Shown piece after piece: positions 1,293 to 25,032 of a DNA stretch of 64,000 nt. Below the pieces are notes generated by a model that did not search any database, was not told where the DNA came from, and saw only the letters and a list, made by a program, of their open reading frames with translations. The stretch is from the NCBI GenBank assembly GCA_023269675.1, contig JAHFSX010000003.1, positions 255,018 through 319,017 on the forward strand, given 5' to 3'. The stretch comes from Verrucomicrobiota bacterium (GTDB taxonomy: Bacteria; Verrucomicrobiota; Kiritimatiellia; RFP12; UBA1067). The first letter of the stretch is position 1; every line of letters starts with the position of its first letter. The position numbers and the translations under genes are program-made.

Positions 1293-1335
1293 GGGCGACC
1301 TGACTCTCGTTTACTGCCCGGCGGCTCGGCAAAGC

Positions 1336-1373: not shown

Positions 1374-1482
1374 CGGCATCGCGAGCCTGACGGGCGGTGA
1401 GGTTAACCCGAACCGTCCGGAGAGTCAAGGGCGCCCGCATCCGGCATTGACAGCAGGGCTTGGGAAGGGCCATCATTCGGGC

Positions 1483-1995: not shown

Positions 1996-2000
1996 GGCTG

Positions 2001-5105: not shown

Positions 5106-5179
5106 GTTCACCTCGTTCACTGCGTTATTCCGTGGTACGGGCGGCCCGCCCGCGAAAAATCATGTCGGTTCTGTCAAGT

Positions 5180-5207
5180 GGCGTGAGGCACGTCAGCGCC
5201 TCACGCC
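5180..5207 (-). terminator. GC-rich hairpin (GGCGTGAGGC / GCCTCACGCC, 8-nt loop) after the stop of the 5226-8789 gene
   Basis: Perfect 10-bp stem seen directly; no clear U-tract, so could be a rho-dependent or structural element. Confidence 0.4.
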
Positions 5208-5225
5208 AGAACGTATTCTCATCCC

Positions 5226-8200
5226 TTACTGTATGTGCATCACGGTGCCGGACTTGCCGCGCAGCACGGTCAGGATGCCCGTGCCTGCGAAGTGCTCGGT
5301 GTCAATCACCTGCGCACCGCTGCCGCTTGACGCGCTGTAGGTGCCGGCGTGCTTCTCCTTGTCGCCGAAATAGAGGCGCTCCACGGTCTCGTTGACGCCG
5401 GCCGTCAGGCTGAGTTTTGCCGCCCCGCCGTCCGCGATCCGGACCGCGGCGGTGTCGGCGATGGCGACGGAGTTCGAAAGCGTCAGCGTGCCGGCGGCCA
5501 CAACGACGTTCGTGCTGTTGGGGCCGAAGGTGCCGGTCGCGCTCACCACCAGCGTGCCGTTGCTCACGATAAAGCTGCCGGAGGTGACGTTCGTGCCGGT
5601 CAGCGTCAGTGTGCCGTTGCCCGCCTTGACGAGGGAGACCGCGCCCGTGATGGCACCACCTTCCGCACCGAAGGAGTGGTTGGTCTCACTGCTCACGATC
5701 AGCGTGGCCGGAGCGGCGCTGAAGATCCGCTGCCATCCGCCGCCGCCCGCGAAATGATTCTCGACAAGGCCGGTGATCTGTTGCGAGAAGCCGTTGAGGT
5801 CAAAAGTGGCTTTGTTGTTGACGGAGCCATCTTTGCCGATCGTCAAGGTGGTGGTCGCCGGCAGGGCGCCCGAAACCCCCAATTTCAGCGTGCCTTCGGA
5901 GAGGGCGGTGCCGCCCCAGACATTGCTGGCGGTGTTGAGCAGAAGCGTGCCCGCATCATTGCGGAGCAAGGTGTTGCCGGTGCCGATGGTGATCCGGCTG
6001 TTCATGTCGATGTTCCCGACTCCACGGATGGAAAGGCTACACACGCCGGAATTGGTGACACTGTCTGCCTCGGAACTTCCGATGATTAAGGTGCCGCCGG
6101 CTTGATCGCAAGTGATATAGGCCGCACTGAGCGCTACAATGTTGCCGTCCCAAGTCGCTGTCCCGCTGCTCTGGTTGTAATTGAGACTGGCACGGCGGTC
6201 CCCGCTGCCGTTCAACGTGAGCGTCTCGTTGGTGATGGTGACGTTTTTGCCCAGATACAAGCGGCTCAAGGTGGTGCCATTGCCACCTAACACCGTGGTG
6301 CCGCCGGCCGTGGAGCCCAGCGCGCTGTTGTTATTGACCGTCACGTTGATGTTCGGTATCCCGCTGATCCCCACGGTGGTCTCCCCCCCATAGGTGTTGG
6401 TTCCGGCGAGCGTTGAGGTGCCGCGTAAGGTGAGCGTGACCGTCGGGCCGGCAATCACGCCGACCGCGCTCTGCGAGAGCGCGGCGTTCGTCGCCGCCAC
6501 CGTGATGCTGGAACCGTCCATCAAGCCGCCCAAAACGAGCGACCCCGTGTTGACCGTCGTCGCGCCCGTGTAGGTATTGGTGCCTTGAAGCGCGACCGTG
6601 CCCGAGCTTGTCAAGGTCACACCGGTTCCCGAGATGACGCCGGCCACGCCCTGCGTGAGGACCGCCCCGCTGGCGACGGTGACGCTGGAGTTGCTGAGCG
6701 AACCGTTCAGTGTCAGCACGCCGGCGTTGACCGCCGTCGGACCGCTGTAGCTGTTCGCGCCGGTCAGTGTGAGCACGGCGGTGCCGGACTTGGTCAGGCC
6801 GCCCGTGCCGGTGATTCCCTCGCCGCCGATGGTGTAGGCCTTGGTGCTGGTGTTGACCGTCACCGAGTAGGGCGCGACCGCGACGGGCGTGATGTTCACG
6901 GCAGGGGACGCCGAACCGGTGTCATCAAAGACGACGATGCTGCTGTCGGCATAGAGTATGGGTGTCCAGTTGGCGGTGGCCGTGTCCCACGCGTTGGCCG
7001 AGAGTCCTCCCTGCCAAATCAGAGGCGCTGCCGTCGTACCGCCGCCGGTGACGGTCAGTATCACGCTGGTGTCGCCCACCGTGAGGGTGGCGTTGGGATA
7101 GGGACGGTCGAGCGTCAGCGTGCCGCTGCCGCTCCGCGCGGCATAGGTCATCTGGGTGTAGGTGCCGGCCGGAGCCGTGCCCCCTGGGAAAGAAAGCGCG
7201 AGTGTGTTCGCCCCGTTCACGACCAGCGTGCCCGCGATGGCGACCGTGTCGCAGGAGCCGGCGACGGACGAGACTTCAGACGTGATCGTGTTGCCGTTGA
7301 GCGTCAGGGCGGAAGCGCCGCTGTTGGCCAGCATGAGCGTGCCGACGCCGTTGCTGCCGGGCGCGAGCTTGGCACCCGCCGTCAGGCTCACGACGCCGTT
7401 GACCGTGCCCGTGCCGCCGAGGGTGCCCGCCGCTGCTACAGTCACCGCGCTGGCCGCGGCGGTCGAGCCGTTGACCAGCAGGGTGCCCGTCGTCACGGTT
7501 GTCACACCGGTGTACGTGTTCGCCCCCGAGAGCGTCCAAATGCCGGTGCCGTTCATGGTCACCCGCATCGCGCCGTTGAGCACTCCTCTCAGAGCGCCGT
7601 TGCCGACCCCGGTCAATTGCAGCGTAGGAGTCAGGTTCGCAGCAAAGACGCTGACATTGCCGCTCAGCGTCAGCGTCTTTCCCGCCGTCGCGCACTCGAT
7701 GATGCCGCCGTTCGCGTTTCCCGCTTGAGAAACCACAGTCACCGCACGGTTGCAGGATGCGTCGTCCGCGCCGGTATAGCGGAACCGTCCGGTCGTGCCG
7801 TTGTCCTGACCGATCGAAATGGCGGTCCCTGCGCCGATCGGACAGGCAACCCCGGCATCAGCAAGCGTGTCCGCGCTGATCGTGCCGTCTTTGATGGTCA
7901 GGTTGCCCGTGAACGCGTTGGCGGGGTTGCTCAAGACCACCGTGCCGCTGTCCGTACGGGTTACCCCCCCGCTGCCGAGGTTGATCAGCCCGCTGAAGAT
8001 GAACGTCCCGCTGCCGCGGAATGTCGGCGTCCTGCCGGAACCGGTGATGCCGCCGGTTAGCGTCGCTGTGCCGCTCCCCGAGTGTTCGAATTGCATGTCT
8101 CCAAGAAAATTCAACACACGGTCAGAGGTCGTGGCGCCGCCGGTGTAGGTCATGCGCGCGTTGACGTCGATGATGCCGTTCTCCGCCGTGGAGGGTGCGC

Positions 8201-8789
8201 CGAGGGCGCTGGCGACGGCTCCCACGTTACTGATGGAGTTGTAGTAGACGCGTCCGCTGTTGAGCGAGGTCTTGCCCGAGTAAGTGTTGGCGCCGTTCAG
8301 CGTGAGCTCGCCGGAACCTGTCTTGGTGAAGCTCTGTGAACCGCCGGTCTCACCGATCACACCCGAGATCGCGAGGTTGTGGGCCGAATTCACGGTGACT
8401 GTGCGGGCAGCATTCAGCAGCAGGCTGAGCGCGAGGGTATCCGAAAGTGTGCCGGGCGAGGACGCCGTGGTCGTGAGAGTGCTGCCAAGCACCAGCCGAT
8501 TTCCGGCCAGCGTGAACGATGACAGGTTGTTGGTCTTGTTGTTGGCCAAACTGATTCCGGCAAAGACCGTATCAGCGGTATAATTGTTGGTAGTGACGGC
8601 CCGCGTGTTTCCGGAGAAAACCAGGGTCGCCGTGCCGTCGCTGGGGGGCGCGCCGTCGGGATTCCAGTTGGCGTCGGTCAGCCAGAAGCTGTCCGTGCCG
8701 CCGCCGTCCCAGGTGAAGGGGGCCGCGCTGACGGTCGCCGCCGTCATGGCGGCCAAAACCAGACTCGTTATCATGCATTTCATATTCAT
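5226..8789 (-). CDS. giant secreted PATR-repeat protein (1187 aa), type-A C-terminal tail
   Basis: GAGGAGA SD 5 nt upstream; signal peptide MNMKCMITSLVLAAMTAATVSA; WDGGGTDSFW..ANWNPDG; many PATR units; tail HFAGTGILTVLRGKSGTVMHIQ. Confidence 0.85.
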   Translation of the reverse strand: MNMKCMITSLVLAAMTAATVSAAPFTWDGGGTDSFWLTDANWNPDGAPPSDGTATLVFSGNTRAVTTNNYTADTVFAGISLANNKTNNLSSFTLAGNRLVLGSTLTTTASSPGTLSDTLALSLLLNAARTVTVNSAHNLAISGVIGETGGSQSFTKTGSGELTLNGANTYSGKTSLNSGRVYYNSISNVGAVASALGAPSTAENGIIDVNARMTYTGGATTSDRVLNFLGDMQFEHSGSGTATLTGGITGSGRTPTFRGSGTFIFSGLINLGSGGVTRTDSGTVVLSNPANAFTGNLTIKDGTISADTLADAGVACPIGAGTAISIGQDNGTTGRFRYTGADDASCNRAVTVVSQAGNANGGIIECATAGKTLTLSGNVSVFAANLTPTLQLTGVGNGALRGVLNGAMRVTMNGTGIWTLSGANTYTGVTTVTTGTLLVNGSTAAASAVTVAAAGTLGGTGTVNGVVSLTAGAKLAPGSNGVGTLMLANSGASALTLNGNTITSEVSSVAGSCDTVAIAGTLVVNGANTLALSFPGGTAPAGTYTQMTYAARSGSGTLTLDRPYPNATLTVGDTSVILTVTGGGTTAAPLIWQGGLSANAWDTATANWTPILYADSSIVVFDDTGSASPAVNITPVAVAPYSVTVNTSTKAYTIGGEGITGTGGLTKSGTAVLTLTGANSYSGPTAVNAGVLTLNGSLSNSSVTVASGAVLTQGVAGVISGTGVTLTSSGTVALQGTNTYTGATTVNTGSLVLGGLMDGSSITVAATNAALSQSAVGVIAGPTVTLTLRGTSTLAGTNTYGGETTVGISGIPNINVTVNNNSALGSTAGGTTVLGGNGTTLSRLYLGKNVTITNETLTLNGSGDRRASLNYNQSSGTATWDGNIVALSAAYITCDQAGGTLIIGSSEADSVTNSGVCSLSIRGVGNIDMNSRITIGTGNTLLRNDAGTLLLNTASNVWGGTALSEGTLKLGVSGALPATTTLTIGKDGSVNNKATFDLNGFSQQITGLVENHFAGGGGWQRIFSAAPATLIVSSETNHSFGAEGGAITGAVSLVKAGNGTLTLTGTNVTSGSFIVSNGTLVVSATGTFGPNSTNVVVAAGTLTLSNSVAIADTAAVRIADGGAAKLSLTAGVNETVERLYFGDKEKHAGTYSASSGSGAQVIDTEHFAGTGILTVLRGKSGTVMHIQ

Positions 8790-8875
8790 CTTGTCTCCTC
8801 TAGCTTATGGGATGTGGGGCCTCAGCGCCGCGTCCACGGGGTGGAGTGTCGTAACACCACAACGTATTACATTAT

Positions 8876-8938
8876 CCCGCAAAGGCGCAAAGACGCAAAG
8901 TCATTTTAAAACCCTTTGCGCCTTTGCGTCTTGGCGGG
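8876..8938 (-). terminator. long imperfect hairpin built from GCGCAAAG/CTTTGCGC units (about 25-bp stem, 13-nt AT-rich loop) after the stop of the 8998-12108 gene
   Basis: cccgcaaaggcgcaaagacgcaaag-tcattttaaaacc-ctttgcgcctttgcgtcttggcggg; 17/20 complementary plus outer CCCGC/GCGGG. Confidence 0.35.
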
Positions 8939-8997
8939 AAAACAATGAGTTTTTGTTACTGTTCTCTGGCCGTAAGGCACTGAAGGGCCGCAAACTT

Positions 8998-11900
8998 TTA
9001 TTGCACCCGCAGCAGGGTGCCGGACTTGTCGTGCAGGACCGTCAGGATGCCGGTGCCCGCGAAATGCCCGCTGTCGATGAAGTAGGCGCCGCTGCCGGGC
9101 GCGCCGTAGGTGCCGACGCGCTGCTGCTTGTTGCCGAAGAACAGGTACCCGACCGTCTCGTTCACGCCGGCGGCCAGGTTCACCTTGGCCGTGTTGCCGT
9201 TCGCGATCGTGAGCGTCGCGGAGTTGGTGATGCAGGTCGAGGACTGGAGCGACAGCGTCGTCGTGCCCGCGCCCGTGGCGGCGACCGTGACATTGGTGCT
9301 GTTCCCGAGGTTTGTGGCGGCGAATACCACCAGAGTGCCGTTGCTGACCGTGATGTTGCCGACGGTGCTGTTCAAGGCGTTGGAGAGGGTCAGGCTGCCC
9401 GTGCCGGTTTTGACAAGGCTGACGGCCCCCGCGAGCTGCCCGTCGTAGGTCGTGTTGGCGCTCTGGTTCACCGTCAGCGTGGCCGGCAAAACGCTCGTGA
9501 TGACGACCAAGCCGTTTGAGGGTTCGGCCCGTTGCAGTCCGCCGATGGTCTGGTCGAACCCGTTCAGGTTCAGGTTCGCGTTGGGGCCGTACCAGACGCC
9601 GCCGATTTTCAGCGTGGCGTTCGTGGGAAAGGCGTTGGCGACATCCGTCCGCAGGCTTCCGCCCGTGAAAAGCGCGGCGCCCCAGCTGTTTCCCGCCACG
9701 CCCAGAACCGTGAGCCCGCCGGAGTCGGTGTGGAAGGTGCCGGTGCCGAGATTGAGGGGCGCGGCGGTGAACGTGACCGTGCCTTGGGCGTTGACGACGA
9801 AGAAGGGATTCGGCCCCGTGACGCCGCCGGTGATGTTGAGGAGCGTGCCGGCGTTGGCCACGTAGCGCCCGCCCGAGGTGGTGATCGGGCCGCTCACGGT
9901 GTTGGTTCCGGCCGCGTTCACCAGGCACCCCCCGTTGACGGAGCTGCCGATAAAGGTGAGCGGTTCCGCGAGGGTGATGCCGCCGGGCAGGTCGAGATGG
10001 GCGCTGGTCGCCCCCGCCGTGTTGACGACGGTTCCGCCCAGCGTGGAGCCCAGCGCGTTGGAGCTCGCGACGGTGATGCCGCCGCCCCAGAGGGTGGTCA
10101 CGCCGTCGTAGGTGTTGGTGCCTGAAAGGACCAGCGTTCCGTTGCCGGTCTTGGTAAAGCCCAGCGCGTCAGCCCCGTCGCCGATGTTGCCCGAGACGGT
10201 CAGGGTGGTGGCGCCCGAGAGGTTGGTGACGCTCCACGTCTGGTTCTCGATCAGGGTCACATCCTCCGCCACCGTGTACGCGCGGGAGGTGGCCGTCGGC
10301 GCGTACGCCGTGAGGCCGCCCAGCCCGAGGGTCAGCGCGCCGTCGCCGTTGGCGAGCGTGAAGGCCCCGTCGCGGTTGAAGGCGAGGCCATAGAGGCTCG
10401 CGTTCGTGTTGACCGTGGCCGCGCCGCCGCTGCTGGCGAAGAAGACATACGAGGTGCCGGTGAACGCCGGCAGCGCGTCGCCCTCCCAGTTCGCCGCAGT
10501 GGTCAGATTGCTGTCCGCGCCGCCGCCCGCGTCCCACGTGTAGTTGGTCGCAAGGATCGGCGGATTGCTCAGCACGGAGAGCTTCCCGCTGCCGCTGAAA
10601 TGCGCGGTGTCGAGCGTGGTCGCACCGCTGCCGGCTGTGGCTCCGTACGTGCCTCGGCGCTGCTGGACGCCGCCCAGAAACAGCGTGTTCACCGTTTCGG
10701 TGAGATTGGTGCCGATCTTCACCTTCGCGGTGCCGTCCAGGATCGACAGGCTGGCGCTGTCCGCCAGGGCGGTCGCCGTCCGAAGCTCCAGCGTCCCCCC
10801 CGCCACGACTACATTCGTGCTGGCGCTGAACCCTGCCGCGTACTCGACCACGAGCGTCCCGTTGCTCACAGTGATGTCGCCCGTCGTGGGCGAGACCGCA
10901 TTGGTGAAGGTGATGGTGCCTGTTCCGGCCTTCACGAGGCAAACGGCACCGGCGAGCTGCCCGTTGTAGGTGGTGTTCGCGCTCTGATTCAGGGTCAAGG
11001 TCGCCCGCGCCGGGCTGGTCACTGTGCGGGTTCCCGCGTTCGTCGTGTCCGTGATCAGGGCGCCGATCGTCTGATCAGAGCGGTTCAGGTCAACGATCCC
11101 GTTTGGCTGATAGCCGACGCCGACGTACAGGGTCGTTGTCGTCGGCAGCGCGTTGGCGATATCCGTTCTCACGGTGCCGCCGGCGGCCCGGGTGTTATTC
11201 CAAACGTTGCCTGCCACGGCGATCGCCTCCATGCCGGACTGATCCGCCCAGAAGCCGCCGGACCCGAGGTTGACGGGGGCGGTGCTGAAGATGATCGTGC
11301 CGCCGCCCGGATTTAGAATCAGGTCGCCGGACGTGCCGGAGATGCCGCCGGCGATCACCAGCGTGGTGCCGCCCGACGCATTCATCCGCATCCCGTTCAG
11401 CGTGGTGATCAGGCCTCGCACCGTGTTGCTGCCGCCGCTGTTCAGCAGCGAAGCTCCGGAATTGGGACGCTGCTCGTTAAAGGTCAGCGGCTCGTCGACC
11501 ACGATGCCGCCGCTGATCTGGAGCCAGCCGCCCTTCGTCGAGCGGACCATCGTGTTGCCGTTGGTGCTGCCCAGCGCGCTGCCGTGGCTGATCGCGAGCA
11601 AGGTCCCGTTGCTGACGACGGTGACGCCCTCGTAGGTGTTGCTGCCGGTGAGCGTGAGCGTCGAATTCGTGACGTTTGCGAGCAGTCCGCCGGTTCCGCT
11701 CAGCGTCCCGTTCACCGTGACCGCCGCATTGGAGCCGTAGAACATGCGCGTGCCGCTCAGGATCATGGGCAGCTTGAGCGTCTGGGTGCTTGCGGAAAGG
11801 TTCCGCACATCGCCGCCCAGCGTGAGGCTGTTGCCCGAGAGGGTGAACGCGCCGGCGCCGCTGTTGAAGGTGATGCCGCCGAAGGACGTGTCGGCCGCCA

Positions 11901-12108
11901 GATTGTTGGTGTTCGCCAGCCTCGCCGAGCCGCCGAAGTAGAGCGCGTCATCGGCAACAGGCGCGGAGGCGTCCCCGGCCCAGTTGTTCGTGGTGCTCCA
12001 CTGGGCGTCGCTTCCGCCGCCGTCCCACGTCAGGTCCGCCGCAAGCGCAGCGGAGGCCAGCAGCACCGAGCCAAGCGTCATTGTCAGGGGTCTCATGTTC
12101 GTTGCCAT
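8998..12108 (-). CDS. giant secreted PATR-repeat protein (1036 aa), two tandem modules, type-A C-terminal tail
   Basis: Signal peptide MATNMRPLTMTLGSVLLASAALA; N-terminal module about 75% identical to that of the 12235-16581 gene; internal module boundary ...HFSGSGKLSVLSNPPILATNYTWDAGGG; tail HFAGTGILTVLHDKSGTLLRVQ. Confidence 0.85.
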   Translation of the reverse strand: MATNMRPLTMTLGSVLLASAALAADLTWDGGGSDAQWSTTNNWAGDASAPVADDALYFGGSARLANTNNLAADTSFGGITFNSGAGAFTLSGNSLTLGGDVRNLSASTQTLKLPMILSGTRMFYGSNAAVTVNGTLSGTGGLLANVTNSTLTLTGSNTYEGVTVVSNGTLLAISHGSALGSTNGNTMVRSTKGGWLQISGGIVVDEPLTFNEQRPNSGASLLNSGGSNTVRGLITTLNGMRMNASGGTTLVIAGGISGTSGDLILNPGGGTIIFSTAPVNLGSGGFWADQSGMEAIAVAGNVWNNTRAAGGTVRTDIANALPTTTTLYVGVGYQPNGIVDLNRSDQTIGALITDTTNAGTRTVTSPARATLTLNQSANTTYNGQLAGAVCLVKAGTGTITFTNAVSPTTGDITVSNGTLVVEYAAGFSASTNVVVAGGTLELRTATALADSASLSILDGTAKVKIGTNLTETVNTLFLGGVQQRRGTYGATAGSGATTLDTAHFSGSGKLSVLSNPPILATNYTWDAGGGADSNLTTAANWEGDALPAFTGTSYVFFASSGGAATVNTNASLYGLAFNRDGAFTLANGDGALTLGLGGLTAYAPTATSRAYTVAEDVTLIENQTWSVTNLSGATTLTVSGNIGDGADALGFTKTGNGTLVLSGTNTYDGVTTLWGGGITVASSNALGSTLGGTVVNTAGATSAHLDLPGGITLAEPLTFIGSSVNGGCLVNAAGTNTVSGPITTSGGRYVANAGTLLNITGGVTGPNPFFVVNAQGTVTFTAAPLNLGTGTFHTDSGGLTVLGVAGNSWGAALFTGGSLRTDVANAFPTNATLKIGGVWYGPNANLNLNGFDQTIGGLQRAEPSNGLVVITSVLPATLTVNQSANTTYDGQLAGAVSLVKTGTGSLTLSNALNSTVGNITVSNGTLVVFAATNLGNSTNVTVAATGAGTTTLSLQSSTCITNSATLTIANGNTAKVNLAAGVNETVGYLFFGNKQQRVGTYGAPGSGAYFIDSGHFAGTGILTVLHDKSGTLLRVQ

Positions 12109-12234
12109 ATGCCTTACCTACTTTTATGCGCCTGTTGCCAAAAGGTGCCAGGTTTTCCGGGCACGCGATCCGCGACGGGGGTCATCGCGGGCTACCTAAA
12201 CTCATGTGCGAACGCACGCATGAATGATCCTGCT

Positions 12235-15200
12235 TTACCGTACAATCAGCACCGTGCCTAGCGGCAGGAGGACCACCTCGCCGGTCGGAAGCTGTGAAGC
12301 GGCCTGCCCGGTCGGCGACGTGATCTTCTTAAGCTGGTTTTTCGTCAGGCTGGCCGAGGTGCCGACGAAGAGGCGGTCGGCGCCGGCGGTCCAGTTGCGC
12401 AGCATGAGCGCGCCGTCCCAGGTCTGGCTCGCGCTGTCCGCGAGGGTCAGCGTGCAGCTCCCGCTGCCGAAGTCGAGGGCGGCCGCGCCGTCGACGTCCA
12501 GCGCGCCCAGGGTCTCGCTGAAGCCGGCGGTGGCGAACGTGCCGCCCGTCAGGCGCAGCGGGCTCGCGTTGTCGATGCGCTCGGCAGCGGCCAGCCGCAG
12601 CGTTCCGCTGGCCACCGTGGTCGCGCCCGTGTAGGCATTGCTGGCGGCCAGCACGACCGTGCCGGTTCCGGTCTTGGTGAGGCCGCCGGGGCCGCTGATC
12701 ACGCCGGTCACGATCACGGCGTTGGTGCCGGCCGAGGCGGAGGTGAGTTGCACGGTGTTGCTGAGCAGGAAGGCGCCGCTGAAGACCGCGCTGTTGGTCG
12801 CGACCGACCCGACGGAGACGCTGGCGCCGTTCGTGTACGGATACACGCTGATGCCGCGCGCGAAGGTGTAGTTGCCGTCGAAGACGAGCGCCACCGTGTT
12901 CGAGGATGTCGTGCCCGCGTCAGCTACCTGCACCGCCGTGTTGGTATTGCCCAGGGGGCCCGAAATGTTGGGGAACACGCTGGCGCCAACGATCAGCCGC
13001 CCGTTCCGGACCGTCGTCGTGCCATGGAACACGGAAGCGGTGCCGCTCAGCTTGAGCGTGCCCGCTCCGGTTTTGCGGATGTCGCTGACCGCCTGCAGCG
13101 GCTCGGCCCCGCTGTAAATGCCGAAACTCGCGCTCACCAGAAGGTCGATGTCGGCCGCGCCGTCGTTCACGTCGAACGTCTTGGTGTTCGAGCCGCCGGT
13201 GCCCGGCCCCTGGAAGAGCCCCGCCGCAATCGTCGCCGTCGCGTTCGTGCCGATGTAGCGGACGATCTGTTCGCTGTTGGCGGCGCTGGCTTCCAGAGGA
13301 TTCGAGCAGCCGAGGTAGACCCCGTCTCCCAGCGTCAGCGCCGGACCGTTCGCCGCCTGGCGCCACACGTTGAGCTGCGGCGTATCGTTGGCCACGTTCA
13401 GCAAGGAGCCTTCGTTGAGCACGATCGCGTCGACGCTGCCCAAGAAGCCCCACGTCGCTCCACCCGTCCCGTCGTAGCCGAAGGAGAGAGAGCCCGGGCC
13501 ATTTTTCGTGATGACGGTTCCCGAAGGTATGCTGCTGTTCGTGATGCTGGCGAAGGTGAGCGTCGTGCCGGGCTGAGTCACGTCGAAAGTCGCGGTCTTG
13601 CCCGCGCTGACGGTGAATCGGCGGTCCGTGCTCGTGGTCGGCCCCGTGTACCGCAAGGTGCCGCCGTCGAAGACCAGTTTGGAGGCGGCACTGGACGACG
13701 CGCCGATTGAACTGGCGAACAGCCCGTTCGTGAGCGAGCCGGCGCTCAGAACGCCCGAGGTGAGCCACGTCGCGCCGGTGTAAGTGTTGGCCCCGGAGAG
13801 GGTCAGGGTGCCCAGTCCGAGCTTTTGAAACCCGAGCATATTGCCGCCCGGATTGCCGATGACCGAACTGTAGATGAACTCGCCGCCCGGCGCATTGGTG
13901 GTGTCGAGCCCGAGGAGCGAGCCGGTCTTGAAGCCGCCGCCGGCCGACCCCAAGCCTTTGAGCACATCCAAGTCGCCGGGGGCGAACTCGCCGCTGCCGC
14001 CGACGTTGAAGGCCAGCGTCGCGCCGCTGTTCACGATGATGGAGTTGGTGGTCCACTGCGCGGTGTCGCCGTTATACAGGGCCGCGGTCTTGGCGATCTG
14101 CAGGGTGCCCGCGCTGACCGTGGTGGCGCCGGCATAAGTGTTGGTGCCGGAGAGCGTCTGCGTGCCCGTACCGTTCTTGGTCAAGCCGCCGCTGCCGCTG
14201 AGGGCCCCGGCAAAGGAGGCCGGCTGGGTGTTGGCGCCGAGGCTGAGCGTGTTGGCGCCGAGGCTCAGCGCGTTCGCTCCCTGGAGGCCGCTGAGCGTGT
14301 AGGTCACCGGGCCGGCCAGCGTGAGCACGACGCTTTGCGGTCCGGCCGTGCCGGTGTTGAGGATGCTGTTTTTCAGCGCGTCGACCTGTCCGAGCTCGAG
14401 CGTGCCGGCATTCACGGTGACTGTGCCGCTGAAGGTGTTGGCGGCTGTCAGCGCCAGCGTGCCCTCGCCGGTTTTTGTCAGGGTGCTGCTGCCAGCGATG
14501 ACTTTGGCCACGGTCAGCTTAGTCGCCGCGTCAGTCTCGAAGGTGCCTCCCGACGCGCCCACGCTTAATCCGCGGTTGCTGTCGTCGACGGTGAAGGTCG
14601 CCGTGCTTTGCAGGGTGCCTCCGTTGAGCGTGAGCTGGTCGGCCGCGCTGCTGCCGGGGTTTGCGCCCAGGGCCGCCTCGCCGGCCGCGCTCAGCTTGCC
14701 GGCGTTGACGAAGGTTTTTCCGGTGTAGGTGTTCACGCCGGCGAGCGTCAGGGTGCCGCCGCCGGTTTTGGTCAGCGCGCCGCTGCCGGCGATGATGTTG
14801 GCGATGGCCAGCGTGGTGGCGGCGGGCGTTTCAAAGGTGCCTCCGGCCGGGGCCAGGGTCACGCCGCGGTTGCTGTCGTCCAGCGTGAAGCTGGCCGCGC
14901 CGAGCAGGGTGCCGCCGCTGAGCAGCAGCTGGTCGGCGACGCTGCCGCCCGGGTTCGCGCCCAGGAACGCCTCGTCCGCGACACTGAGCTTGCCGTTATA
15001 GAGGGCGGTCTTGCCGCTGTACGTGTTGTTGCCGGAGAGCACCAGCGTGTTGGTTCCCAGCTTGACGATGCCGAGGCTGTTCCCGTCCGGATTGCCGACA
15101 TCCGAGGCGTAGGTGAACGTTCCTCCCGGCGCGAACGAGGTGTCGAGCCCGAAGTAAGACCCGCTCAGGAAGCCGCCTGTGGCGGAGCCGATCCCCTTAA

Positions 15201-16581
15201 GCACGTCGAGATCCGCCGCGGTGAACTCGTTCGATCCGCCGACATTGCAGGCCAGAACCGCGCCGTTGCTCACGATCAGGCTCGAGGCTGTCCAAAGCTC
15301 CGTTGTGCCTCCGAAAAGCGCGCTGCGCTTCGCGGCGAGCACGGTTCCGCCCCCCACGGTCACCGTGCCGGTGGCGGTGTTGTTGCCGGAGAGCGTCAGC
15401 GTGCCTGCGCCGGTCTTAGTCAGGCCCACAGCCCCGGTGAAACGTCCGTCATATGTCGAGGCCGAACTCTGATTGACGGTCAGCGTGGCCGGCATCGCGC
15501 TGGTCACCGTGCGGGTGCCGGCATTCGTGGTGTCGTTGCGCAGCTGGCCGACGGTCTGGTCGAAGCCGTTCAGGTTGAATGTGCTGTTAGGCCCGTAAGA
15601 GATGCCGAGGCGCAAAGCGGTCGAGGCCGGGAGCCCGTTCGTGATCTCCATCCGCAGCGTCCCGTTGGCCACCAGTGTCTCGCCCCACGTGTTGCCCGCG
15701 ACGCCCACGACGGTGAGTCCCCCGGAGTCCGTATAGAAGGCGTCGGAGCCGATGCTGAGCGGCTTCTCATAGAAGGCGATCGTGCTGCTGGAGTTGAGGA
15801 CGCAGAGTCCGCCGCCGCCTGTCATGCCGCCCGTGATGAGAAGAGCGTTCCCGTCCGCTTTGAGACGGGTCTGGCCCTGCCGCGTGATGGCCCCGCTCCA
15901 GATGTTGCTGCCGCTGCTGCTGTACAGAGAAGCGCCGCTGCCCGGCCGCTCGCCGATCAGCGTCAACGGTTCCGCCACCGTGATGCCGCCGCTGATCTGG
16001 AGCGAGCCGCTGGTGACGGAGCGGACCACGGTATTGCCGTTGGTGCTGCCCAGCGCGCTGGCGTGGCTGATCGCGAGCAGGCCGTTGCTGACGGTGGTGA
16101 CGCCCTCGTAGGTGTTGCTGCCGGTGAGCGTCAGCGTCGCATTCGTGAGGTTCACGAACAGGCCGCCGGTGCCGCTGAGGACCCCGTTGGCCGTGATGGA
16201 GCGGCTGACCCCGTAGAACATGCGCGTGCCGCTCAGGTTCATGGGCAGGCTGAGCGTCTGCGTGTTGGCGGAAAGGTTGCGCACATCGCCTCCCAGCGTG
16301 AGGCCGTTGCCCCAGAGGGAGAAAGCGCCCGCGCCGCTGTTGAACGTGATGCCCGCGAACGAGAGGTCGGCGGTCAGGTCGTTGGTGTTTGTCAGCTTGG
16401 AGGTGCCTCCAAAGAAAAGCGCGTCATCCGCCACGGGCGCGGTGAGGTTCGCGTCCCAGTTGGTCGCGGTTGACCAGTTGGCGTCGATTCCGCCGCCGTC
16501 CCACGTGCGGTCCGCCGCACAGACCGTAACCGCCGTCACGGCGGTCAACGCCAGACTCACGAGCATACGCTTCATTTTCAT
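12235..16581 (-). CDS. giant secreted PATR-repeat protein (about 1448 aa), type-B C-terminal module
   Basis: Start chosen at MKMKRML with a GGAG SD (track start 16632); internal tandem roughly 75-aa repeats (LGANPG.S.ADQL.L.GGTL...DDSNRG...GGTFET); the last ~150 aa are near-identical to the 16698-20126 gene, ending GEVVLLPLGTVLIVR. Confidence 0.85.
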   Translation of the reverse strand: MKMKRMLVSLALTAVTAVTVCAADRTWDGGGIDANWSTATNWDANLTAPVADDALFFGGTSKLTNTNDLTADLSFAGITFNSGAGAFSLWGNGLTLGGDVRNLSANTQTLSLPMNLSGTRMFYGVSRSITANGVLSGTGGLFVNLTNATLTLTGSNTYEGVTTVSNGLLAISHASALGSTNGNTVVRSVTSGSLQISGGITVAEPLTLIGERPGSGASLYSSSGSNIWSGAITRQGQTRLKADGNALLITGGMTGGGGLCVLNSSSTIAFYEKPLSIGSDAFYTDSGGLTVVGVAGNTWGETLVANGTLRMEITNGLPASTALRLGISYGPNSTFNLNGFDQTVGQLRNDTTNAGTRTVTSAMPATLTVNQSSASTYDGRFTGAVGLTKTGAGTLTLSGNNTATGTVTVGGGTVLAAKRSALFGGTTELWTASSLIVSNGAVLACNVGGSNEFTAADLDVLKGIGSATGGFLSGSYFGLDTSFAPGGTFTYASDVGNPDGNSLGIVKLGTNTLVLSGNNTYSGKTALYNGKLSVADEAFLGANPGGSVADQLLLSGGTLLGAASFTLDDSNRGVTLAPAGGTFETPAATTLAIANIIAGSGALTKTGGGTLTLAGVNTYTGKTFVNAGKLSAAGEAALGANPGSSAADQLTLNGGTLQSTATFTVDDSNRGLSVGASGGTFETDAATKLTVAKVIAGSSTLTKTGEGTLALTAANTFSGTVTVNAGTLELGQVDALKNSILNTGTAGPQSVVLTLAGPVTYTLSGLQGANALSLGANTLSLGANTQPASFAGALSGSGGLTKNGTGTQTLSGTNTYAGATTVSAGTLQIAKTAALYNGDTAQWTTNSIIVNSGATLAFNVGGSGEFAPGDLDVLKGLGSAGGGFKTGSLLGLDTTNAPGGEFIYSSVIGNPGGNMLGFQKLGLGTLTLSGANTYTGATWLTSGVLSAGSLTNGLFASSIGASSSAASKLVFDGGTLRYTGPTTSTDRRFTVSAGKTATFDVTQPGTTLTFASITNSSIPSGTVITKNGPGSLSFGYDGTGGATWGFLGSVDAIVLNEGSLLNVANDTPQLNVWRQAANGPALTLGDGVYLGCSNPLEASAANSEQIVRYIGTNATATIAAGLFQGPGTGGSNTKTFDVNDGAADIDLLVSASFGIYSGAEPLQAVSDIRKTGAGTLKLSGTASVFHGTTTVRNGRLIVGASVFPNISGPLGNTNTAVQVADAGTTSSNTVALVFDGNYTFARGISVYPYTNGASVSVGSVATNSAVFSGAFLLSNTVQLTSASAGTNAVIVTGVISGPGGLTKTGTGTVVLAASNAYTGATTVASGTLRLAAAERIDNASPLRLTGGTFATAGFSETLGALDVDGAAALDFGSGSCTLTLADSASQTWDGALMLRNWTAGADRLFVGTSASLTKNQLKKITSPTGQAASQLPTGEVVLLPLGTVLIVR

Positions 16582-16697
16582 AGTCTCCGCCGCCTTTTTT
16601 CTGTTCTGCTCTGGGGTGCGGGGCGTGAGCACCGCCAGCTGCGGCGATCTTCATTTCACCGCAGTCAAGCGGCGCCGAAGTGCCGCACTTCAAAGAG

Positions 16698-19600
16698 CTA
16701 CCGTAAAATGAAAACCGTGCCCAGCGGCAGGAGGACCACCTCGCCGGTCGGGAGCTGCGAGGCGGCCTGCCCGGTCGGCGACGTGATCTTCTTAAGCTGG
16801 GCCGTCGTCAGGCTGGCCGCGGTGCCGACGAAGAGGCGGTCGGTGCCGGAGGTCCAGTTGCGCAGCACGAGCGAGCCGTCCCAGGTCTGGCTCGCGCTGT
16901 CCGCCAAGGTCAGCGTGCAGCTCCCGCTGCCGAAGTCGAGGACGGCCGCGCCGTCGACGTCCAGCGCGCCCAGCGTCTCGCTGAAGCCGGCGGTTGCGAA
17001 CGTGCCGCCGGTCAGGCGCAGCGGGCTGGCGTCGGCGATGCGTTCGGCCCCGGCCAAGCGCAGCGTTCCGGCGGTCACCGTCGTCGCGCCGGTGTAGGTG
17101 TTGGCCGCGGCGAAGATCACCGTGCCGGTGCCGGTCTGGGTGACGCCGCCGGGGCCGGAGATGCCGCCGGTGATGAAGAGCGCGTTGGTGCCGGTCGTCA
17201 CGGAGAGCAGCTGCAGCGTGTTGCTGGCCCCGATCGCGCCGCTGAAGGTGACGTTGTTGTTCGAGATGCTGCCCAGGATGGCGGAAGCGCCTGCGGGATA
17301 GACGCTCACGTCGCGCGCAAACGCGAAGCCGCTGTTGTTCGGGCCCTCGAAAACGAACGCGGGCGTGTCCGTCGGCTGAGTGCCCGCATCGCCAAGCTGG
17401 AACGCGTTTGTCGACTGCCCGATAACGCTCTTGCCGCTGGCGGGCACGCTCGCCGTGACGACGAGTCGGCCGCTGCGGACCGTGGTCGCGCCCCGGTAGG
17501 CGTTCAGGCTGTTCTTGAGGCGAAGCGTGCCGGCTCCGGTCTTACGCACGTTGCTGTTGGCGATGCCCGTGTAGATGTTGATTTCGCCCGGGATGTCGAG
17601 GTCGATCTCGTCCGCGCCGTCGTTGATGTCAAAGATGTGCGTATTGTACTCCAAGACCCCCGCCGCATTGGTGGTGGGCCCGGTCATTGTGAACTGTCCG
17701 CTCGTAATGCGTGCGCCGCTCTGCGTGCCCACGTAGCGGACGAGCATCTCGGCTCCGTTGACGTAGTTTTCCAGCGGCGTGTTGTAACCCAACACGGCGC
17801 CATCGCCGAGCAGGACCGCGGGTCCCTGGCTGGCCAGGGCGTGAACGTTCTGCTGGATGGTGGTCGGCGAAGGCTCGGTCAGCAGCGTGCCGCCCAACAC
17901 ATAGACCGCTTTGCACGTGAAATTGTACGTGGGCCCGGTGCCCTTGCCGAAAACCAAGGTTCCGGGGCCTGACTTGATGACCGTCGTGTTGGCCGAATCG
18001 AACACCGCGTTTGAGAGAGCCCCGAAGGTCAGAACGGTATTCGCCTGGGTCACGTCGAACGCATAGGCGTTGGTCACCGCGGCATAGGTGAAACCCCGGT
18101 CGGTCCGCGTGCTCGGGCCCGTGTACTGGAGGGCGCCCCCGTCGAACACCAGATTGCCACGATAGCTGGAGGACTGACCCATCGCGCTCGCCAATCCGCC
18201 CGTGGTGATGCTGTTGATGCTCAGCACGCCCTGGCTGATTTTGGTCGCGCCGGTGTAGCTGTTCATGCCGGTCAGCGCGAGGGTGCCTGCGCCGAGTTTC
18301 TGCAGGTTAAGGCCGTGACCTCCCGCGGGGTTGCCGAGCGTGTCGCTGATCTCGTAGAAGGCCCCCGGCGCGTTGGTCGCGGTCAGGGCCAGCCACGCGC
18401 CCGGCTTGAACCCCGTGGTGGCGGTGCCGAGCGCGGCGATGGTGCCGATGTCGGCGGACAGGAACTCGCCCGCGCCGCCGACGTTGAGCAAGAGCGTCGC
18501 GCCGCTGGCGACGGTGAATTTGTCGGAGGAGAGGGTCGCGCCGTTATACAGGGAGACCTTCTTGCCGACCTGCAAGGTGCCCGCGTTGACCGCGGTGACG
18601 CCCGCATAATCGTTGACGCCCGTGAGCGCGAGCGTGCCCGCGCCCGCCTTGTTGAGCCCGCCCGGACCGGTCATCGGATTCGCGACCGTCATGTCGGCGC
18701 CGGCTGCGGTCTCGAAGGTGCCGTTGCCGGTGCCGAGGGTGATGCCGCGGTTGACATCGCTCAGGACCAGAGGCCCGAGCGCCAGCAGGGTGGCGGCGTT
18801 GCTGATGAGCAGGTGGTCGGGAACATAGGCTTCGGGCGTGACGCCGAGGGCTTTGCCGGAATAGATTCCGAGTTTGCCCCCGCCGACCACGGTCTGCGCG
18901 CTCTGCTGGCAGTTGGTGCCCGTGACTTTGAGCGTGCCGGCCCCGAGTTTGACGAGGCGCAGCTGGCCGGCGAAATTGCTGTTGAACTCGGTCGTGCTGC
19001 TTTGGTTCACCGTCAGCGTGGCGGGACCCGTGCTGCTGGTGATCACGCGGACGCCGTCATTCGTGATGACGCCGGTGAGTGTGCCGACAGACTGGTCATT
19101 CCCCTGCAGGTCGGTGAAGCTGCTCCGCGCATACGAAACGCCGACCTCAAACATCAGGTTGGCCGGCCAGGCATTGGGCACTTCCAACAGCAATGTGCCG
19201 CCGGAGACCTCGATGTCGTTGACCGTGTTACCCGCAACCCCCAGAATGGCGGTACGGGTGCCGTGAAAGAAACATTTTTGGTTGTTTGCCAGAATCGGCT
19301 TCGTGCTGATTTTCATCACCGGTGTGCCGGCCGCGCTGCCGGAATCGAGAATCACGGTCGAGTTGAAGCTCGTGATGCCGCCGGTGATGTGGGCGTACAT
19401 GGACTGGTTCTGCACGCGGGCCTGGCCGCCCGTAATGGTGATGAGTCCGCTGTAGACGTTCGAGCCGGTTTGGAAAATCAGCATAGAGGGGTTTTGGTTC
19501 ACCAGCGTGATCGGTTCGGCGATGGTGAGGCCGTTGTAGACATCCACGCCCGCGCCCGTGTTGACGATCGTCCCTTGGGCAATGCCGCCAAAAGCGTACG

Positions 19601-20126
19601 AGTCTGTAATGGAAACCCGTCCGGTCACAAGGGTCGTCACGCCCTCGTAGCTGTTGTTGCCGCCGAGGGTCAGCACTTTGGTGCCGGTCTTGGTCAATCC
19701 CCCCGGGCCGCTGAGGATCCCGTTGACCGTGACCGCGCCGTTGGAGGCCGAAAAAGTGCGCGTGTCACTGAGCGCCATCGGAAAGTTGAGCGTCTGGGTG
19801 TCGTTGTCGGCGTTCAGGACGTTGCCGGCCAGCGTGATGCCGCTGCCCCAAAGCGTAAACGCGCCCGCGCCGCTGTTGAACGTGATGCCCGCGAACGACG
19901 TGTCGGCTGCCAGATCGTTGGTGTTCGCCAACCCCGCTGACCCGCCGAAGAAAAGCGCGTCACCCGCAGCGAGTGCGTTTCCGCCCCAGTTGCCTTCCGT
20001 GCTCCACAGCAGGTCGCCCGCGCCTCCGTTCCAGGTGCGGTCCGCGGCGTGGGCGGTCCGGATCAGCGCGGCCATTGCCAGCGTGAGCGTGATCTTGATG
20101 GACATGGCGAAGGCTATTCTTGTCAC
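16698..20126 (-). CDS. giant secreted PATR-repeat protein (1142 aa), type-B C-terminal module
   Basis: AGGGGA SD upstream; signal peptide MTRIAFAMSIKITLTLAMAALIRTAHA; architecture paralogous to the 12235-16581 gene; tail GEVVLLPLGTVFILR. Confidence 0.85.
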   Translation of the reverse strand: MTRIAFAMSIKITLTLAMAALIRTAHAADRTWNGGAGDLLWSTEGNWGGNALAAGDALFFGGSAGLANTNDLAADTSFAGITFNSGAGAFTLWGSGITLAGNVLNADNDTQTLNFPMALSDTRTFSASNGAVTVNGILSGPGGLTKTGTKVLTLGGNNSYEGVTTLVTGRVSITDSYAFGGIAQGTIVNTGAGVDVYNGLTIAEPITLVNQNPSMLIFQTGSNVYSGLITITGGQARVQNQSMYAHITGGITSFNSTVILDSGSAAGTPVMKISTKPILANNQKCFFHGTRTAILGVAGNTVNDIEVSGGTLLLEVPNAWPANLMFEVGVSYARSSFTDLQGNDQSVGTLTGVITNDGVRVITSSTGPATLTVNQSSTTEFNSNFAGQLRLVKLGAGTLKVTGTNCQQSAQTVVGGGKLGIYSGKALGVTPEAYVPDHLLISNAATLLALGPLVLSDVNRGITLGTGNGTFETAAGADMTVANPMTGPGGLNKAGAGTLALTGVNDYAGVTAVNAGTLQVGKKVSLYNGATLSSDKFTVASGATLLLNVGGAGEFLSADIGTIAALGTATTGFKPGAWLALTATNAPGAFYEISDTLGNPAGGHGLNLQKLGAGTLALTGMNSYTGATKISQGVLSINSITTGGLASAMGQSSSYRGNLVFDGGALQYTGPSTRTDRGFTYAAVTNAYAFDVTQANTVLTFGALSNAVFDSANTTVIKSGPGTLVFGKGTGPTYNFTCKAVYVLGGTLLTEPSPTTIQQNVHALASQGPAVLLGDGAVLGYNTPLENYVNGAEMLVRYVGTQSGARITSGQFTMTGPTTNAAGVLEYNTHIFDINDGADEIDLDIPGEINIYTGIANSNVRKTGAGTLRLKNSLNAYRGATTVRSGRLVVTASVPASGKSVIGQSTNAFQLGDAGTQPTDTPAFVFEGPNNSGFAFARDVSVYPAGASAILGSISNNNVTFSGAIGASNTLQLLSVTTGTNALFITGGISGPGGVTQTGTGTVIFAAANTYTGATTVTAGTLRLAGAERIADASPLRLTGGTFATAGFSETLGALDVDGAAVLDFGSGSCTLTLADSASQTWDGSLVLRNWTSGTDRLFVGTAASLTTAQLKKITSPTGQAASQLPTGEVVLLPLGTVFILR

Positions 20127-20892: not shown

Positions 20893-21756
20893 TCAGGGCG
20901 CGTGGGCATAGGCGCGGGCGAGCGCTTGCCACTGCGTCTGGGTGAGCTGCTCGGCGCGGGCGACGGTGTCGACGCCGGCGGCGGCGAAGAGCGCGGCCAG
21001 GGTGGCGTCTTCGCGACCGAGCGGCGCCGGAGCCTTGCGAAAGGACGCCCCGAGCTGCTTGCGGCGGTGCATGAAGGCGTAACGGGTGAGGTCGAAAAAC
21101 CATGTGCGCTCGTCAGGCGTGAGGCCGCACGGGTGACGGTCGAGGCGGACGATCGTGGAGCCGACCTCCGGACGGGGCCAGAAGCAGGAGGCTTTGACGG
21201 CGCGGACGATCGACACGTCATGGTCGAGCTGCAGCCAGACCCCTGCCTGTCCGCGCGCTTCGCAGCCGGGCGCCGCGGCCAGGCGTTCGGCCACCTCGGT
21301 CTGCACCAGGACGGTGATGGACCTGGGCGTGAGCGGGTGGAGGGCGATGTCGATGAGGATGCGCGTGCCGACCGAGTAAGGCAGGTTGGAGACGCAGGCG
21401 TCGAAAGGCTCCGCCAGCAGCGTGTCAAGGTCGAGCTCCAGGGCGTCGGCCTCGATCACGCGCAGCTCCGGCGGGTTGCCGAGCGCGGCCGCCAGGCGGG
21501 AGGCGAGGCGCGCGTCCTTCTCGACCGCGACGACGCGCGCGCCGCGCGCGAGCAGGGCTTCGGTCAGCACGCCGAGCCCGGGGCCGATCTCCAGCACCGC
21601 CTGGCCGGGCTGCACGCCTGCGGCATCGACGATCACATCGAGGATGTTACGGTCGATCAGGAAGTTCTGGCCCAACGTCCGGTTCGGATGAAACCCGTTC
21701 TCGATGCACCAGGCCTTGACATGTGAGGGCGACGTGAGGTTCACGTTGACGCTCAC
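20893..21756 (-). CDS. rsmA: 16S rRNA (adenine1518/1519-N6)-dimethyltransferase
   Basis: GQNFLIDRNILDVIV...LEIGPGLGVLTEAL SAM-binding motifs. Probable GTG start at 21756 overlapping the surA stop (GTGA); the track ATG at 21816 would overlap surA by 64 nt. Confidence 0.8.
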   Translation of the reverse strand: MSVNVNLTSPSHVKAWCIENGFHPNRTLGQNFLIDRNILDVIVDAAGVQPGQAVLEIGPGLGVLTEALLARGARVVAVEKDARLASRLAAALGNPPELRVIEADALELDLDTLLAEPFDACVSNLPYSVGTRILIDIALHPLTPRSITVLVQTEVAERLAAAPGCEARGQAGVWLQLDHDVSIVRAVKASCFWPRPEVGSTIVRLDRHPCGLTPDERTWFFDLTRYAFMHRRKQLGASFRKAPAPLGREDATLAALFAAAGVDTVARAEQLTQTQWQALARAYAHAP

Positions 21757-22745
21757 TTCGGGGTGGGCAGTTCGAAAATCTTGATGTACGCCTCGCTGCG
21801 CAGGCGGTCGGTCCACTCCTTGTAGAGCTTTTCGGCCTGACGCATGCGCAGGTGGCTCTCGACATAGGGGGCGGCTTCCTCGAACGTCAGCGCGCGCGCG
21901 TCCTGCTGCTCATCTTTGCGGACGATATAGCCGTAGCCGTCGAGGACCACCAGGGGCGCGGTTTCGCCGGGCTGCAGTTTGGCGAGCGCCGCCACGATTT
22001 CCTTGCGGAAGACGTCGTCGGGGTTGACCTTGCCCCAGGAGCCGCCGGCGGACGCCTTGGCGTCTTTGGAATAGGTGCGGGCCAGCGAGGCGAAGGCCGT
22101 GCCGGCCTTGAGTGCTTCGAAGATCTTGGCGCTGCGGGCTTCGATGGTTTCGTCACCCGGCTTGTCGGGCGGGTCGAGGATGATCATGCTCACGGCGGTG
22201 GCGTTTTCGGTCCGATAGCGGCCCTTGTTGGTCTCGTATTCGGCGCGCACCTCGCTCGGCGTCGGCTGGACGCGCTTTTCCACCTGCTGATAGCGCATGG
22301 CCGTGACGTTAAGGTCCTCTTCGATGTTCTTTTTCCACTCCTCGTAGGTGATCTTGCGTTCGGCGAGAAGGTTGTGGAGCTTGGTCTGGTCACCGTCGAA
22401 GTTGTTGGCGACGATCTCGCGGATGCGGTTGTCGACGGCCCACGACTGGAGCTGCAGCTTCGACTTCTGCGCGGCGGCGAGGATCAGCTTGCGGTCGATC
22501 AGGGCGTTGAGCGTCGCGGAGTAGAGCTCGCGCAGCCGCTTCTCGCGCAGCTCCGGCGAGGTGTCGGTCCAAGGGCTGCGGCGGACCTCGCTCATGACGT
22601 CGGCGATGGTGATCATCTCGGTGTTGACGTAGGCGGCGACGCCGTCGATCAGCATGGCCGGCGTCTTCTTCTCCGTCGTCAGTTCGGCTTGGCTCGCGGA
22701 GACGGCGAGCAGCAGGACGGCAGAAATCCACGGGGTTATGTGCAT
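21753..22745 (-). CDS. surA: periplasmic chaperone / peptidyl-prolyl isomerase, SurA family
   Basis: Signal peptide MHITPWISAVLLLAVSASQA; SurA N-domain-like region and C-terminal PPIC-type PPIase segment; classic surA-rsmA linkage. Confidence 0.7.
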   Translation of the reverse strand: MHITPWISAVLLLAVSASQAELTTEKKTPAMLIDGVAAYVNTEMITIADVMSEVRRSPWTDTSPELREKRLRELYSATLNALIDRKLILAAAQKSKLQLQSWAVDNRIREIVANNFDGDQTKLHNLLAERKITYEEWKKNIEEDLNVTAMRYQQVEKRVQPTPSEVRAEYETNKGRYRTENATAVSMIILDPPDKPGDETIEARSAKIFEALKAGTAFASLARTYSKDAKASAGGSWGKVNPDDVFRKEIVAALAKLQPGETAPLVVLDGYGYIVRKDEQQDARALTFEEAAPYVESHLRMRQAEKLYKEWTDRLRSEAYIKIFELPTPK

Positions 22746-22880
22746 CGGTTTCTTCCTTTCAACGGGTCAGCGAAGCCTCGTCTTCGATTAAAGAAGAGAC
22801 AGTTTATCGCACACACGGCCGGATTACCACGGAAATTAGGAAGCGGGGGCCGGGAATTCCTCGCGCACGGGCCCTACTGG

Positions 22881-23157: not shown

Positions 23158-23210
23158 CCCCTACTTCCCGCTGTTGTCACATGCGGCCTTTTTGGTACTG
23201 TATGGGGGTT

Positions 23211-24077: not shown

Positions 24078-24134
24078 GGGAAACAAGACGGCAGAAGGCG
24101 GAGCGGCCTGTACACAGGCAGAAAAGGAGCAACC

Positions 24135-25025: not shown

Positions 25026-25032
25026 GGCCCGC

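Follow-up and report, generated by a model that had tools for sequence, protein, structure and literature searches.

The 64,000-nucleotide stretch of DNA analysed here (hereafter the window), which comes from a Verrucomicrobiota bacterium of the Kiritimatiellia (contig JAHFSX010000003.1), carries in its left third (2.0–20.1 kb) five tandem, co-oriented genes of the minus strand, g1 to g5, all coding for proteins with PATR repeats. Two neighbours in this cluster, g4 and g5, are nearly identical at their 3′ ends and divergent over the rest of their length. g4 is a mosaic gene: we put at roughly 85% the probability that its last 118 codons were overwritten by a segment of a paralog through gene conversion, most simply from g5, after g4 had split from the lineage of its ortholog in the metagenome locus L012. 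The body of g4 is closest to that ortholog, its C-terminal end is closest to g5, and the switch from one relationship to the other falls at a single, sharply placed breakpoint.

Near-identical 3′ ends and separate orthologs

The proteins encoded by g4 and g5 share a C-terminal module, the B-type end (…TWDG…NW…LFVG…LT..QL.KI.SP.GQ…GEVVLLPLGTVLIVR), which follows the last PATR repeat. Over the 356 ungapped nucleotides that code for this module and its tail (12238–12593 in g4, 16701–17056 in g5), the two genes differ at 29 positions, corresponding to 92% nucleotide identity, and the longest exact run that they have in common is 39 nt, at 12299. Repeat finding paired 12236–12535 with 16699–16998 at 93% identity, and BLASTN aligned the last 568 nt of both genes at 85.6%. 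In a codon-aware alignment, nucleotide identity reaches 0.91–0.93 over the last ~120 codons and ranges from 0.46 to 0.66 in the rest, a few repeat-rich windows excepted, while third-position identity is 0.88–0.92 in the same codons vs. ~0.5 elsewhere. Where the amino acid agrees between the two proteins, so does the codon at 88% of sites in the tract and at 57% outside it (Fisher p = 1e-9). Synonymous divergence (dS, estimated according to NG86) between g4 and g5 is 0.16 in the tract vs. 0.82 in the body; a separate NG86 calculation gave 0.18 vs. 0.87, with values of 0.03–0.13 in 40-codon windows of the tract. Both identity and dS set the 3′ ends apart from the gene average. The similarity does not extend past the stop codons, the intergenic DNA that follows g4 being unrelated to that following g5. 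An earlier reading of the letters, made without database searches (the sequence-only reading), had described 3′ ends about 90% identical and far above the rest of the genes. This description is borne out (92% vs. ~55–60%), and the string that it quoted as an example is present in the sequence. It had also given the elevated block a length of ~450 nt; the elevation stands, and the length comes down to ~355 nt, since in 12594–12700, which covers the last PATR repeat, g4 is ~80% identical to g5 and equally close to L012.

When genome and metagenome collections were scanned with the module alignment, 20 loci were recovered: 14 metagenome contigs and six genome loci, the latter from metagenome-assembled genomes labelled Lentisphaeraceae, Kiritimatiellia, Verrucomicrobia, and Akkermansia. 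Clusters of B-type genes together with genes of a second kind of end, the A-type, were found in nearly all 20. Orthology was assessed by BLASTP and by trees of the ~535-residue body upstream of the module, and a separate tree was built from the last 120 residues. The body of g4 has its ortholog in a gene of L012 (87% amino acid identity, bootstrap 100; 78% nucleotide identity over 4323 nt). That of g5 has orthologs of its own, namely L013:6610 (71% amino acid identity, bootstrap 96), L002_3/L003_3 (68%) and L005_B/L006_B (56–60%), and the two bodies are 51% identical to each other. Because the bodies have separate orthologs, the duplication that gave rise to g4 and g5 is old and predates the species splits. 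This contradicts the recent duplication that the sequence-only reading had offered as one of its explanations, the two genes lying in different orthologous groups.

The last 120 residues show the reverse of the bodies: g4 and g5 are 89% identical there, vs. 64% for g4 and L012 and 66% for g5 and L013. The tree of these residues joins g4 to g5 as its sister (bootstrap 99) and leaves L012 with L004 and L011 (bootstrap 100). Two indels characterize the orthogroup of g4 (L012, L004, L011, P0003, and P0005), a five-residue Gly/Ser loop after NW[ST] and an extra residue before LT; g4 itself and g5 are both devoid of the loop and of the extra residue. Sliding identities cross at ~12600–12640, where those between g4 and L012 fall from 0.80–0.94 to 0.67–0.77 and those between g4 and g5 rise from ~0.55 to 0.88–0.97. 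The maximum chi-square method, applied to the g4/g5/L012 triplet, places the breakpoint between 12594 and 12592 (chi2 224, 0/1000 permutations). Upstream of it, 541 informative sites unite g4 with L012 vs. 120 that unite g4 with g5, and downstream the counts are 10 and 90. The informative sites in 12594–12684 still mostly group g4 with L012, and the breakpoint, at ~12593, coincides with the end of the last PATR repeat (between …GTLRL and AAAERID…).

Between g4 and L012, dS rises from 0.56 in the body to 0.91 in the tract. As the tract dS is 0.16 between g4 and g5 vs. 0.91 between g4 and L012, g4 is taken to be the recipient and the replacement to have followed its split from the L012 lineage. 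The drop in dS, the incongruence of the trees, the single breakpoint and the shared indels strongly support the gene conversion confined to the C-terminal module that the sequence-only reading had proposed. That conversion is “ongoing,” as it had also suggested, is not shown; one event at ~0.16 dS is enough, and the spacing of the 29 differences, which by eye and without a formal test look evenly spread along the tract with a largest gap of 40 nt, gives no sign of more.

Probable course of the exchange and competing explanations

After the split from the L012 lineage, a non-reciprocal homologous recombination would have replaced g4 from the end of its final PATR repeat to the stop codon, and the body of the gene would have kept its own ancestry. 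The incoming sequence would be the equivalent part of a paralog, and the simplest candidate is the neighbour g5, which lies 4.46 kb upstream in direct orientation. Similarity between the paralog groups is highest in the C-terminal third, which is probably why the exchange would have started there, to end with the homology at the stop codon; the baseline identity between the paralog groups, measured between g5 and L012, peaks in the last PATR repeat and the C-terminal module (0.65–0.81 vs. 0.45–0.65 elsewhere). The molecular route was presumably a RecA-type conversion. A possible benefit is that the proteins, by retaining a common C-terminal module and tail, would all continue to fit a single partner for export or anchoring; homology-limited initiation fits the pattern of the tracts in these clusters better than invoking selection. 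A single crossover, through Campbell-type integration or unequal sister exchange, was considered and rejected: it predicts a 3′ part of L012 type in g5 or duplicated intergenic and body sequence, and neither is seen.

Exchange tracts are a general habit of these gene clusters and are not special to this module. A second, older tract, overlapping repeat families D4, D10, and D17, lies in the N-terminal part of g4 and is shared with g3; nucleotide identity between g4 and g3 is 0.79–0.90 in this tract, above the 0.60–0.73 between g4 and L012 at the same place. Independent tracts are present among the relatives. L009 and L013, identical over an overlap of 6611 nt, represent one genome, in which 465 ungapped nucleotides (L013 6271–6735 and L009 9728–10192) are 95.9% identical between flanks of 60–70%. 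The partners of that tract are a B1 gene and the ortholog of g5, with an A gene between them, and the tract stops 231 nt short of the stop codon, the tail being excluded. L007 contains a pair of B-type ends (1–153 and 6289–6441) that are 93% identical over 153 nt, where the contig end cuts the comparison, and an A-type pair (2712–3269 and 9087–9647) that is 86% identical over 565 nt. Gene order varies as well. L012, of which positions 1–7521 correspond to 1479–16541 of the window, carries a g3-like gene, the ortholog of g4 and then a flank matching 1479–1968 of the window, whereas the order in the window is g5, g4, g3, g2, g1 and then that flank. The cluster is rearranged or expanded relative to L012.

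Three observations weigh against a simple copying of g5 into g4. The tract dS that separates the C-termini of both g4 and g5 from the B1-type gene of L001 is 0.46–0.47, lower than the 0.79 between g5 and its own ortholog in L013, so that both genes may have been converted by a third paralog located beyond the window. When L012 is taken as a proxy for the old end of g4, no exact match to g5 within the last 600 nt exceeds 16 nt, a length that is short for efficient RecA-dependent exchange, though L012 itself has diverged. Finally, the gene order differs from that of L012, so that larger rearrangements have occurred and a more complex event is possible. The first of these observations leads to the alternative that the donor was not g5 at all, and that a third B-type paralog (B1-type, L001_B-like) or foreign related DNA converted g4 and possibly g5 too; we regard this as possible, although unlikely. 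Over 12420–12600 the C-terminus of the L001 B-gene is 86–91% identical in nucleotides to both g4 and g5, and the comparison within the genome is limited to 64 kb. However, no known sequence comes closer than g5 across the full tract (92% vs. 80–82% for L001), g5 is also a near neighbour in direct orientation, and the identity of L001 drops to ~70% in the last ~100 nt. The C-terminus of g5 lacks the indels of the g4 orthogroup and the flanks were not exchanged, which argues against a single crossover; the donor would be g5 or an unseen paralog.

Explanations that dispense with a conversion fare less well. Strong purifying selection on the module, combined with the codon bias of a genome with 89% of G or C at third codon positions (GC3), could in principle produce similar 3′ ends without recombination; in its favour are the conservation of the module among family members (alignment A1 has 28 invariant columns among 149 query residues) and a GC3 of 0.84–0.90. 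Yet the synonymous divergence itself falls fivefold, codon identity at shared amino acids rises to 88% from 57%, and the C-terminus of L012 is clearly different (64% amino acid identity, two indels) despite a body that is 87% identical, so that we hold this explanation to be highly improbable. A recent tandem duplication of the whole gene followed by very fast divergence of everything except the 3′ end, for which the adjacency, common orientation and common architecture of g4 and g5 might be invoked, is hardly credible when the bodies are 87% identical between g4 and L012, 71% between g5 and L013, and 51% between g4 and g5, the duplication predating the species splits. Clusters rich in paralogs are hard to assemble, and this one seems to come from an uncultured-type genome, which brings to mind a chimeric join induced by repeats or a collapsed or duplicated repeat. 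Such an artefact is very unlikely: the copies, with 29 differences over 356 positions and no shared exact run above 39 nt, are not one identical sequence, both reading frames are intact down to the conserved tails, and comparable tracts occur in independent assemblies, one of them backed by a pair of contigs that are identical over a 6.6-kb overlap. There is likewise little room for programmed variation, in which the cluster would serve as a store of cassettes whose shuffling changes a surface antigen, as with pilE/pilS, vlsE, or msp2. The mosaic state of the cluster, in which g4 has its N-terminal tract in common with g3 and its C-terminal tract in common with g5, and the differences in gene order between relatives would be in keeping with it. 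All five genes, however, are full-length, with start codons and signal-peptide-like N-termini, and are not silent partial cassettes; the detected tracts homogenize conserved parts and do not diversify variable ones; the age of the tract (dS 0.16) points to rare events; and neither recombination-site repeats nor dedicated enzymes were found nearby.

The C-terminal module and its seven-residue tail

The last 330 residues of g4 were modelled by AlphaFold, on the basis of 20 aligned sequences, as an all-beta structure, a predicted beta-helix (pLDDT 88.8, pTM 0.87) with one short helix at LTKNQ. A fold search of the PDB with this model returned only weak, generic beta-helix matches and no specific analogue (best E 6e-3, TM ~0.2), the top one being a fragment of the IcsA passenger (5ke1). 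The sequence-only reading had given the tail correctly, and its LPTGEVVLLPLGTVLIVR is the true C-terminus of g4; its description of that tail as “beta-strand-like” is not established, the last 10 residues of the model having no regular structure (pLDDT 72). The module itself is widespread: an exhaustive HMMER search with a 118-position profile returned 3878 cluster representatives at E ≤ 1e-3, including 1764 at E ≤ 1e-10. Among the best 150 of the 3878, a PEP-CTERM-like tail (…TGE[IV]VPVPEP, ~16 hydrophobic residues, RERRR) directly follows the module in 83 according to a motif heuristic, a short tail (…TGEVV..P.GT, four to five hydrophobic residues, R/K/Q, stop) ends 20 proteins, the module is internal in 38, and other C-terminal extensions are present in nine.

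The last seven residues follow the pattern G(-7) T(-6) h h x h [R/K/Q](-1)-COOH across 41 distinct B-type and 43 distinct A-type tails. The same seven positions close the A-type ends in the genes of the window, in the loci of the relatives and in 30 of 30 database matches, and the A-type and B-type modules upstream of this common tail are unrelated; a motif of fixed length on two unrelated modules suggests a function. The genuine PEP-CTERM signal consists of a near-invariant Pro-Glu-Pro motif, a 14-residue transmembrane helix and a basic cluster (Haft et al., 2006, PMC1569441), and is represented by the family models PF07589 in Pfam and TIGR02595. In alignment A4, GEVVLLPLGT of g4 stands against GELVPIPEPT of the PEP-CTERM protein P0018. 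When isolated tails were scored with PF07589, P0018 passed (20.8 bits vs. a cut-off of 20.7) and g4, g3, and P0013 did not, and NCBIfam reported no PEP-CTERM-type model on the tails and their relatives, P0018 included. Part of the motif is kept in some short-tail forms, such as GEVVPVPEATLMMLK and GEVVPIPEGTIIMVQ, and some relatives have PIPEG or PVPEA.

Like PEP-CTERM proteins, those encoded by g4 and g5 have a signal-peptide-like N-terminal sequence and carry their tail at the extreme C-terminus, in a position homologous to that of true PEP-CTERM signals. Unlike them, they have P-L-G at the position aligned to the PEP tripeptide, four to five hydrophobic residues in place of the 14-residue helix and a single terminal R/K/Q in place of the basic cluster. 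No exosortase (EpsH/XrtA) was found among the open reading frames of the window that were scanned. Judged by its residues, the tail of g4 and g5 is not a PEP-CTERM signal; it occupies the site where relatives carry one, from which it is most likely derived. A further proposal, which we consider rather doubtful, is that the tail may be a new minimal sorting or anchoring signal that replaced PEP-CTERM in a Kiritimatiellia/Lentisphaerae-like lineage, and that conversion of the module would then have been favoured because it keeps numerous paralogous beta-helix proteins recognizable to a single common partner.

The gene cluster, its surroundings and known systems

PATR (PF12951, TIGR02601) is the sole Pfam or NCBIfam family found in all five proteins at E ≤ 0.01, and at the same threshold neither database revealed an autotransporter beta-barrel translocator domain in any of them. 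With a PF12951 cut-off of 27 bits, g4 scores 199 bits in nine stretches and g5 103 bits in five, and TIGR02601 also matches. All five genes are complete open reading frames with start codons, and the N-termini of their products resemble Sec signal peptides, which suggests that the proteins are secreted. The A-type end of g1, g2, and g3 reads …GTYG…HF.G.G.LTV….SGT….Q. Each of g1 and g3 is built of two internal units of ~505 residues that close with an A-type module (internal copies at ~3534–3719 and ~10561–10758), the two halves being 32% identical in amino acids in g1 and 43% in g3. The coordinates of these genes and of the other features are collected in Table 1.

Table 1. Positions in the window of the PATR genes, their tracts and tails, and neighbouring genes.
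Feature	Positions	Strand	Remarks
g1	2001-5120	-	PATR protein, A-type end
g1 tail	2004-2024	-	
g2	5226-8789	-	PATR protein, A-type end
g2 tail	5229-5249	-	
g3	8998-12108	-	PATR protein, A-type end
g3 tail	9001-9021	-	
N-terminal tract of g3	11580-11890	-	Counterpart of the N-terminal tract of g4
g4	12235-16632	-	PATR beta-helix protein, 1465 aa, B-type end; stop codon 12235-12237
g4 seven-residue tail	12238-12258	-	GTVLIVR
Probable converted tract of g4 (recipient)	12238-12593	-	Last 118 codons: C-terminal module past last PATR repeat and tail
Last PATR repeat of g4	12594-12684	-	GLTKTGTGTVVLAASNAYTGATTVASGTLRL; 5′ boundary zone of the tract; PF12951/TIGR02601 matches
N-terminal tract of g4	16060-16370	-	Second, older exchange tract, shared with g3; repeat families D4, D10, D17
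g5	16698-20126	-	PATR beta-helix protein, 1142 aa, B-type end; stop codon 16698-16700
g5 seven-residue tail	16701-16721	-	GTVFILR
Matching tract of g5	16701-17056	-	Probable donor, or co-recipient from an unseen paralog
Last PATR repeat of g5	17057-17147	-	Counterpart boundary zone
SurA-like peptidyl-prolyl isomerase	21753-22745		
DegP	26363-27844		
LpxD	28319-29368		
Skp	29368-30057		
BamA	30084-32468		

The flanking DNA has the ordinary chromosomal gene content of a diderm bacterium, coding for KsgA, a SurA-like protein, a SpoU methylase, DegP, LpxD, Skp, BamA, and TatD, and, beyond TatD, for GH127, GH2, AraC, and TRAP-transporter genes. A set of outer-membrane biogenesis genes (20893–33480; KsgA, the SurA-like peptidyl-prolyl isomerase, DegP, LpxD, Skp, BamA, and TatD) adjoins the PATR cluster, an adjacency that may be a coincidence. 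Elsewhere in the window, on the plus strand, two tandem paralogs of ~1250 residues (55418–59215 and 59313–63056) are 55% identical in amino acids overall and almost devoid of Pfam annotation, one of them having a weak match to DUF6259; their last ~260 nt are 80% identical vs. 73% elsewhere, a mild echo of the 3′-end pattern. An Rfam scan of the window returned no family, and hence no known RNA element behind the nucleotide conservation. A promoter and terminator scan of the cluster found none in the intergenic spacers, the counts being at or below shuffle expectation. Literature searches on PATR, Kiritimatiellia and autotransporters yielded nothing on these proteins.

Homogenizing conversion of the 3′ segments of surface-protein paralogs is a textbook phenomenon, of which g4 and g5 are a new example in another protein family and another bacterial group. 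In Helicobacter pylori, the 3′ segments of babA/babB and homA/homB undergo concerted evolution by intragenomic gene conversion, and their likeness has been attributed to intragenomic recombination and to structural constraint on the C-terminal part (PMC2795765, which cites Pride and Blaser, 2002 and Santoyo and Romero, 2005). The two systems have in common surface-protein paralogs with a near-identical 3′ segment and a divergent remainder, and 3′ segments of the same genome that cluster in trees. In contrast to the bab and hom genes, g4 and g5 code for PATR beta-helices without a barrel, belong to an uncultured bacterium probably of the PVC group and are directly adjacent, and here one recipient is demonstrated from one genome and not from a series of strains. 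PATR repeats and, in the C-terminus of g4, a predicted right-handed beta-helix also bring the products of g1 to g5 close to the passengers of type Va autotransporters (IcsA/VirG, ShdA, fusolisin); unlike these, they have no C-terminal 12-stranded barrel, and g4 and g5 end in the 118-residue module and its short tail. The silent, truncated donor cassettes of the pilE/pilS, vlsE, and msp2 systems have no counterpart in this cluster, whose five genes are complete.

With orthologs as controls, the clusters of giant PATR beta-helix genes of this uncultured group are seen to evolve as mosaics, in which one neighbour acquires copies of ~350–470 nt from another. Trees and orthology assignments built on single whole genes will therefore be misleading, and the segments have to be analysed separately. 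The 3′ end of g4 offers a clean, dated example of such a tract, younger than a speciation event. The module that it carries is a widespread one that elsewhere precedes PEP-CTERM signals, and it ends here in a conserved seven-residue tail that is common to a second, unrelated module and that may serve as a testable handle on the export and anchoring of PATR proteins devoid of a barrel.

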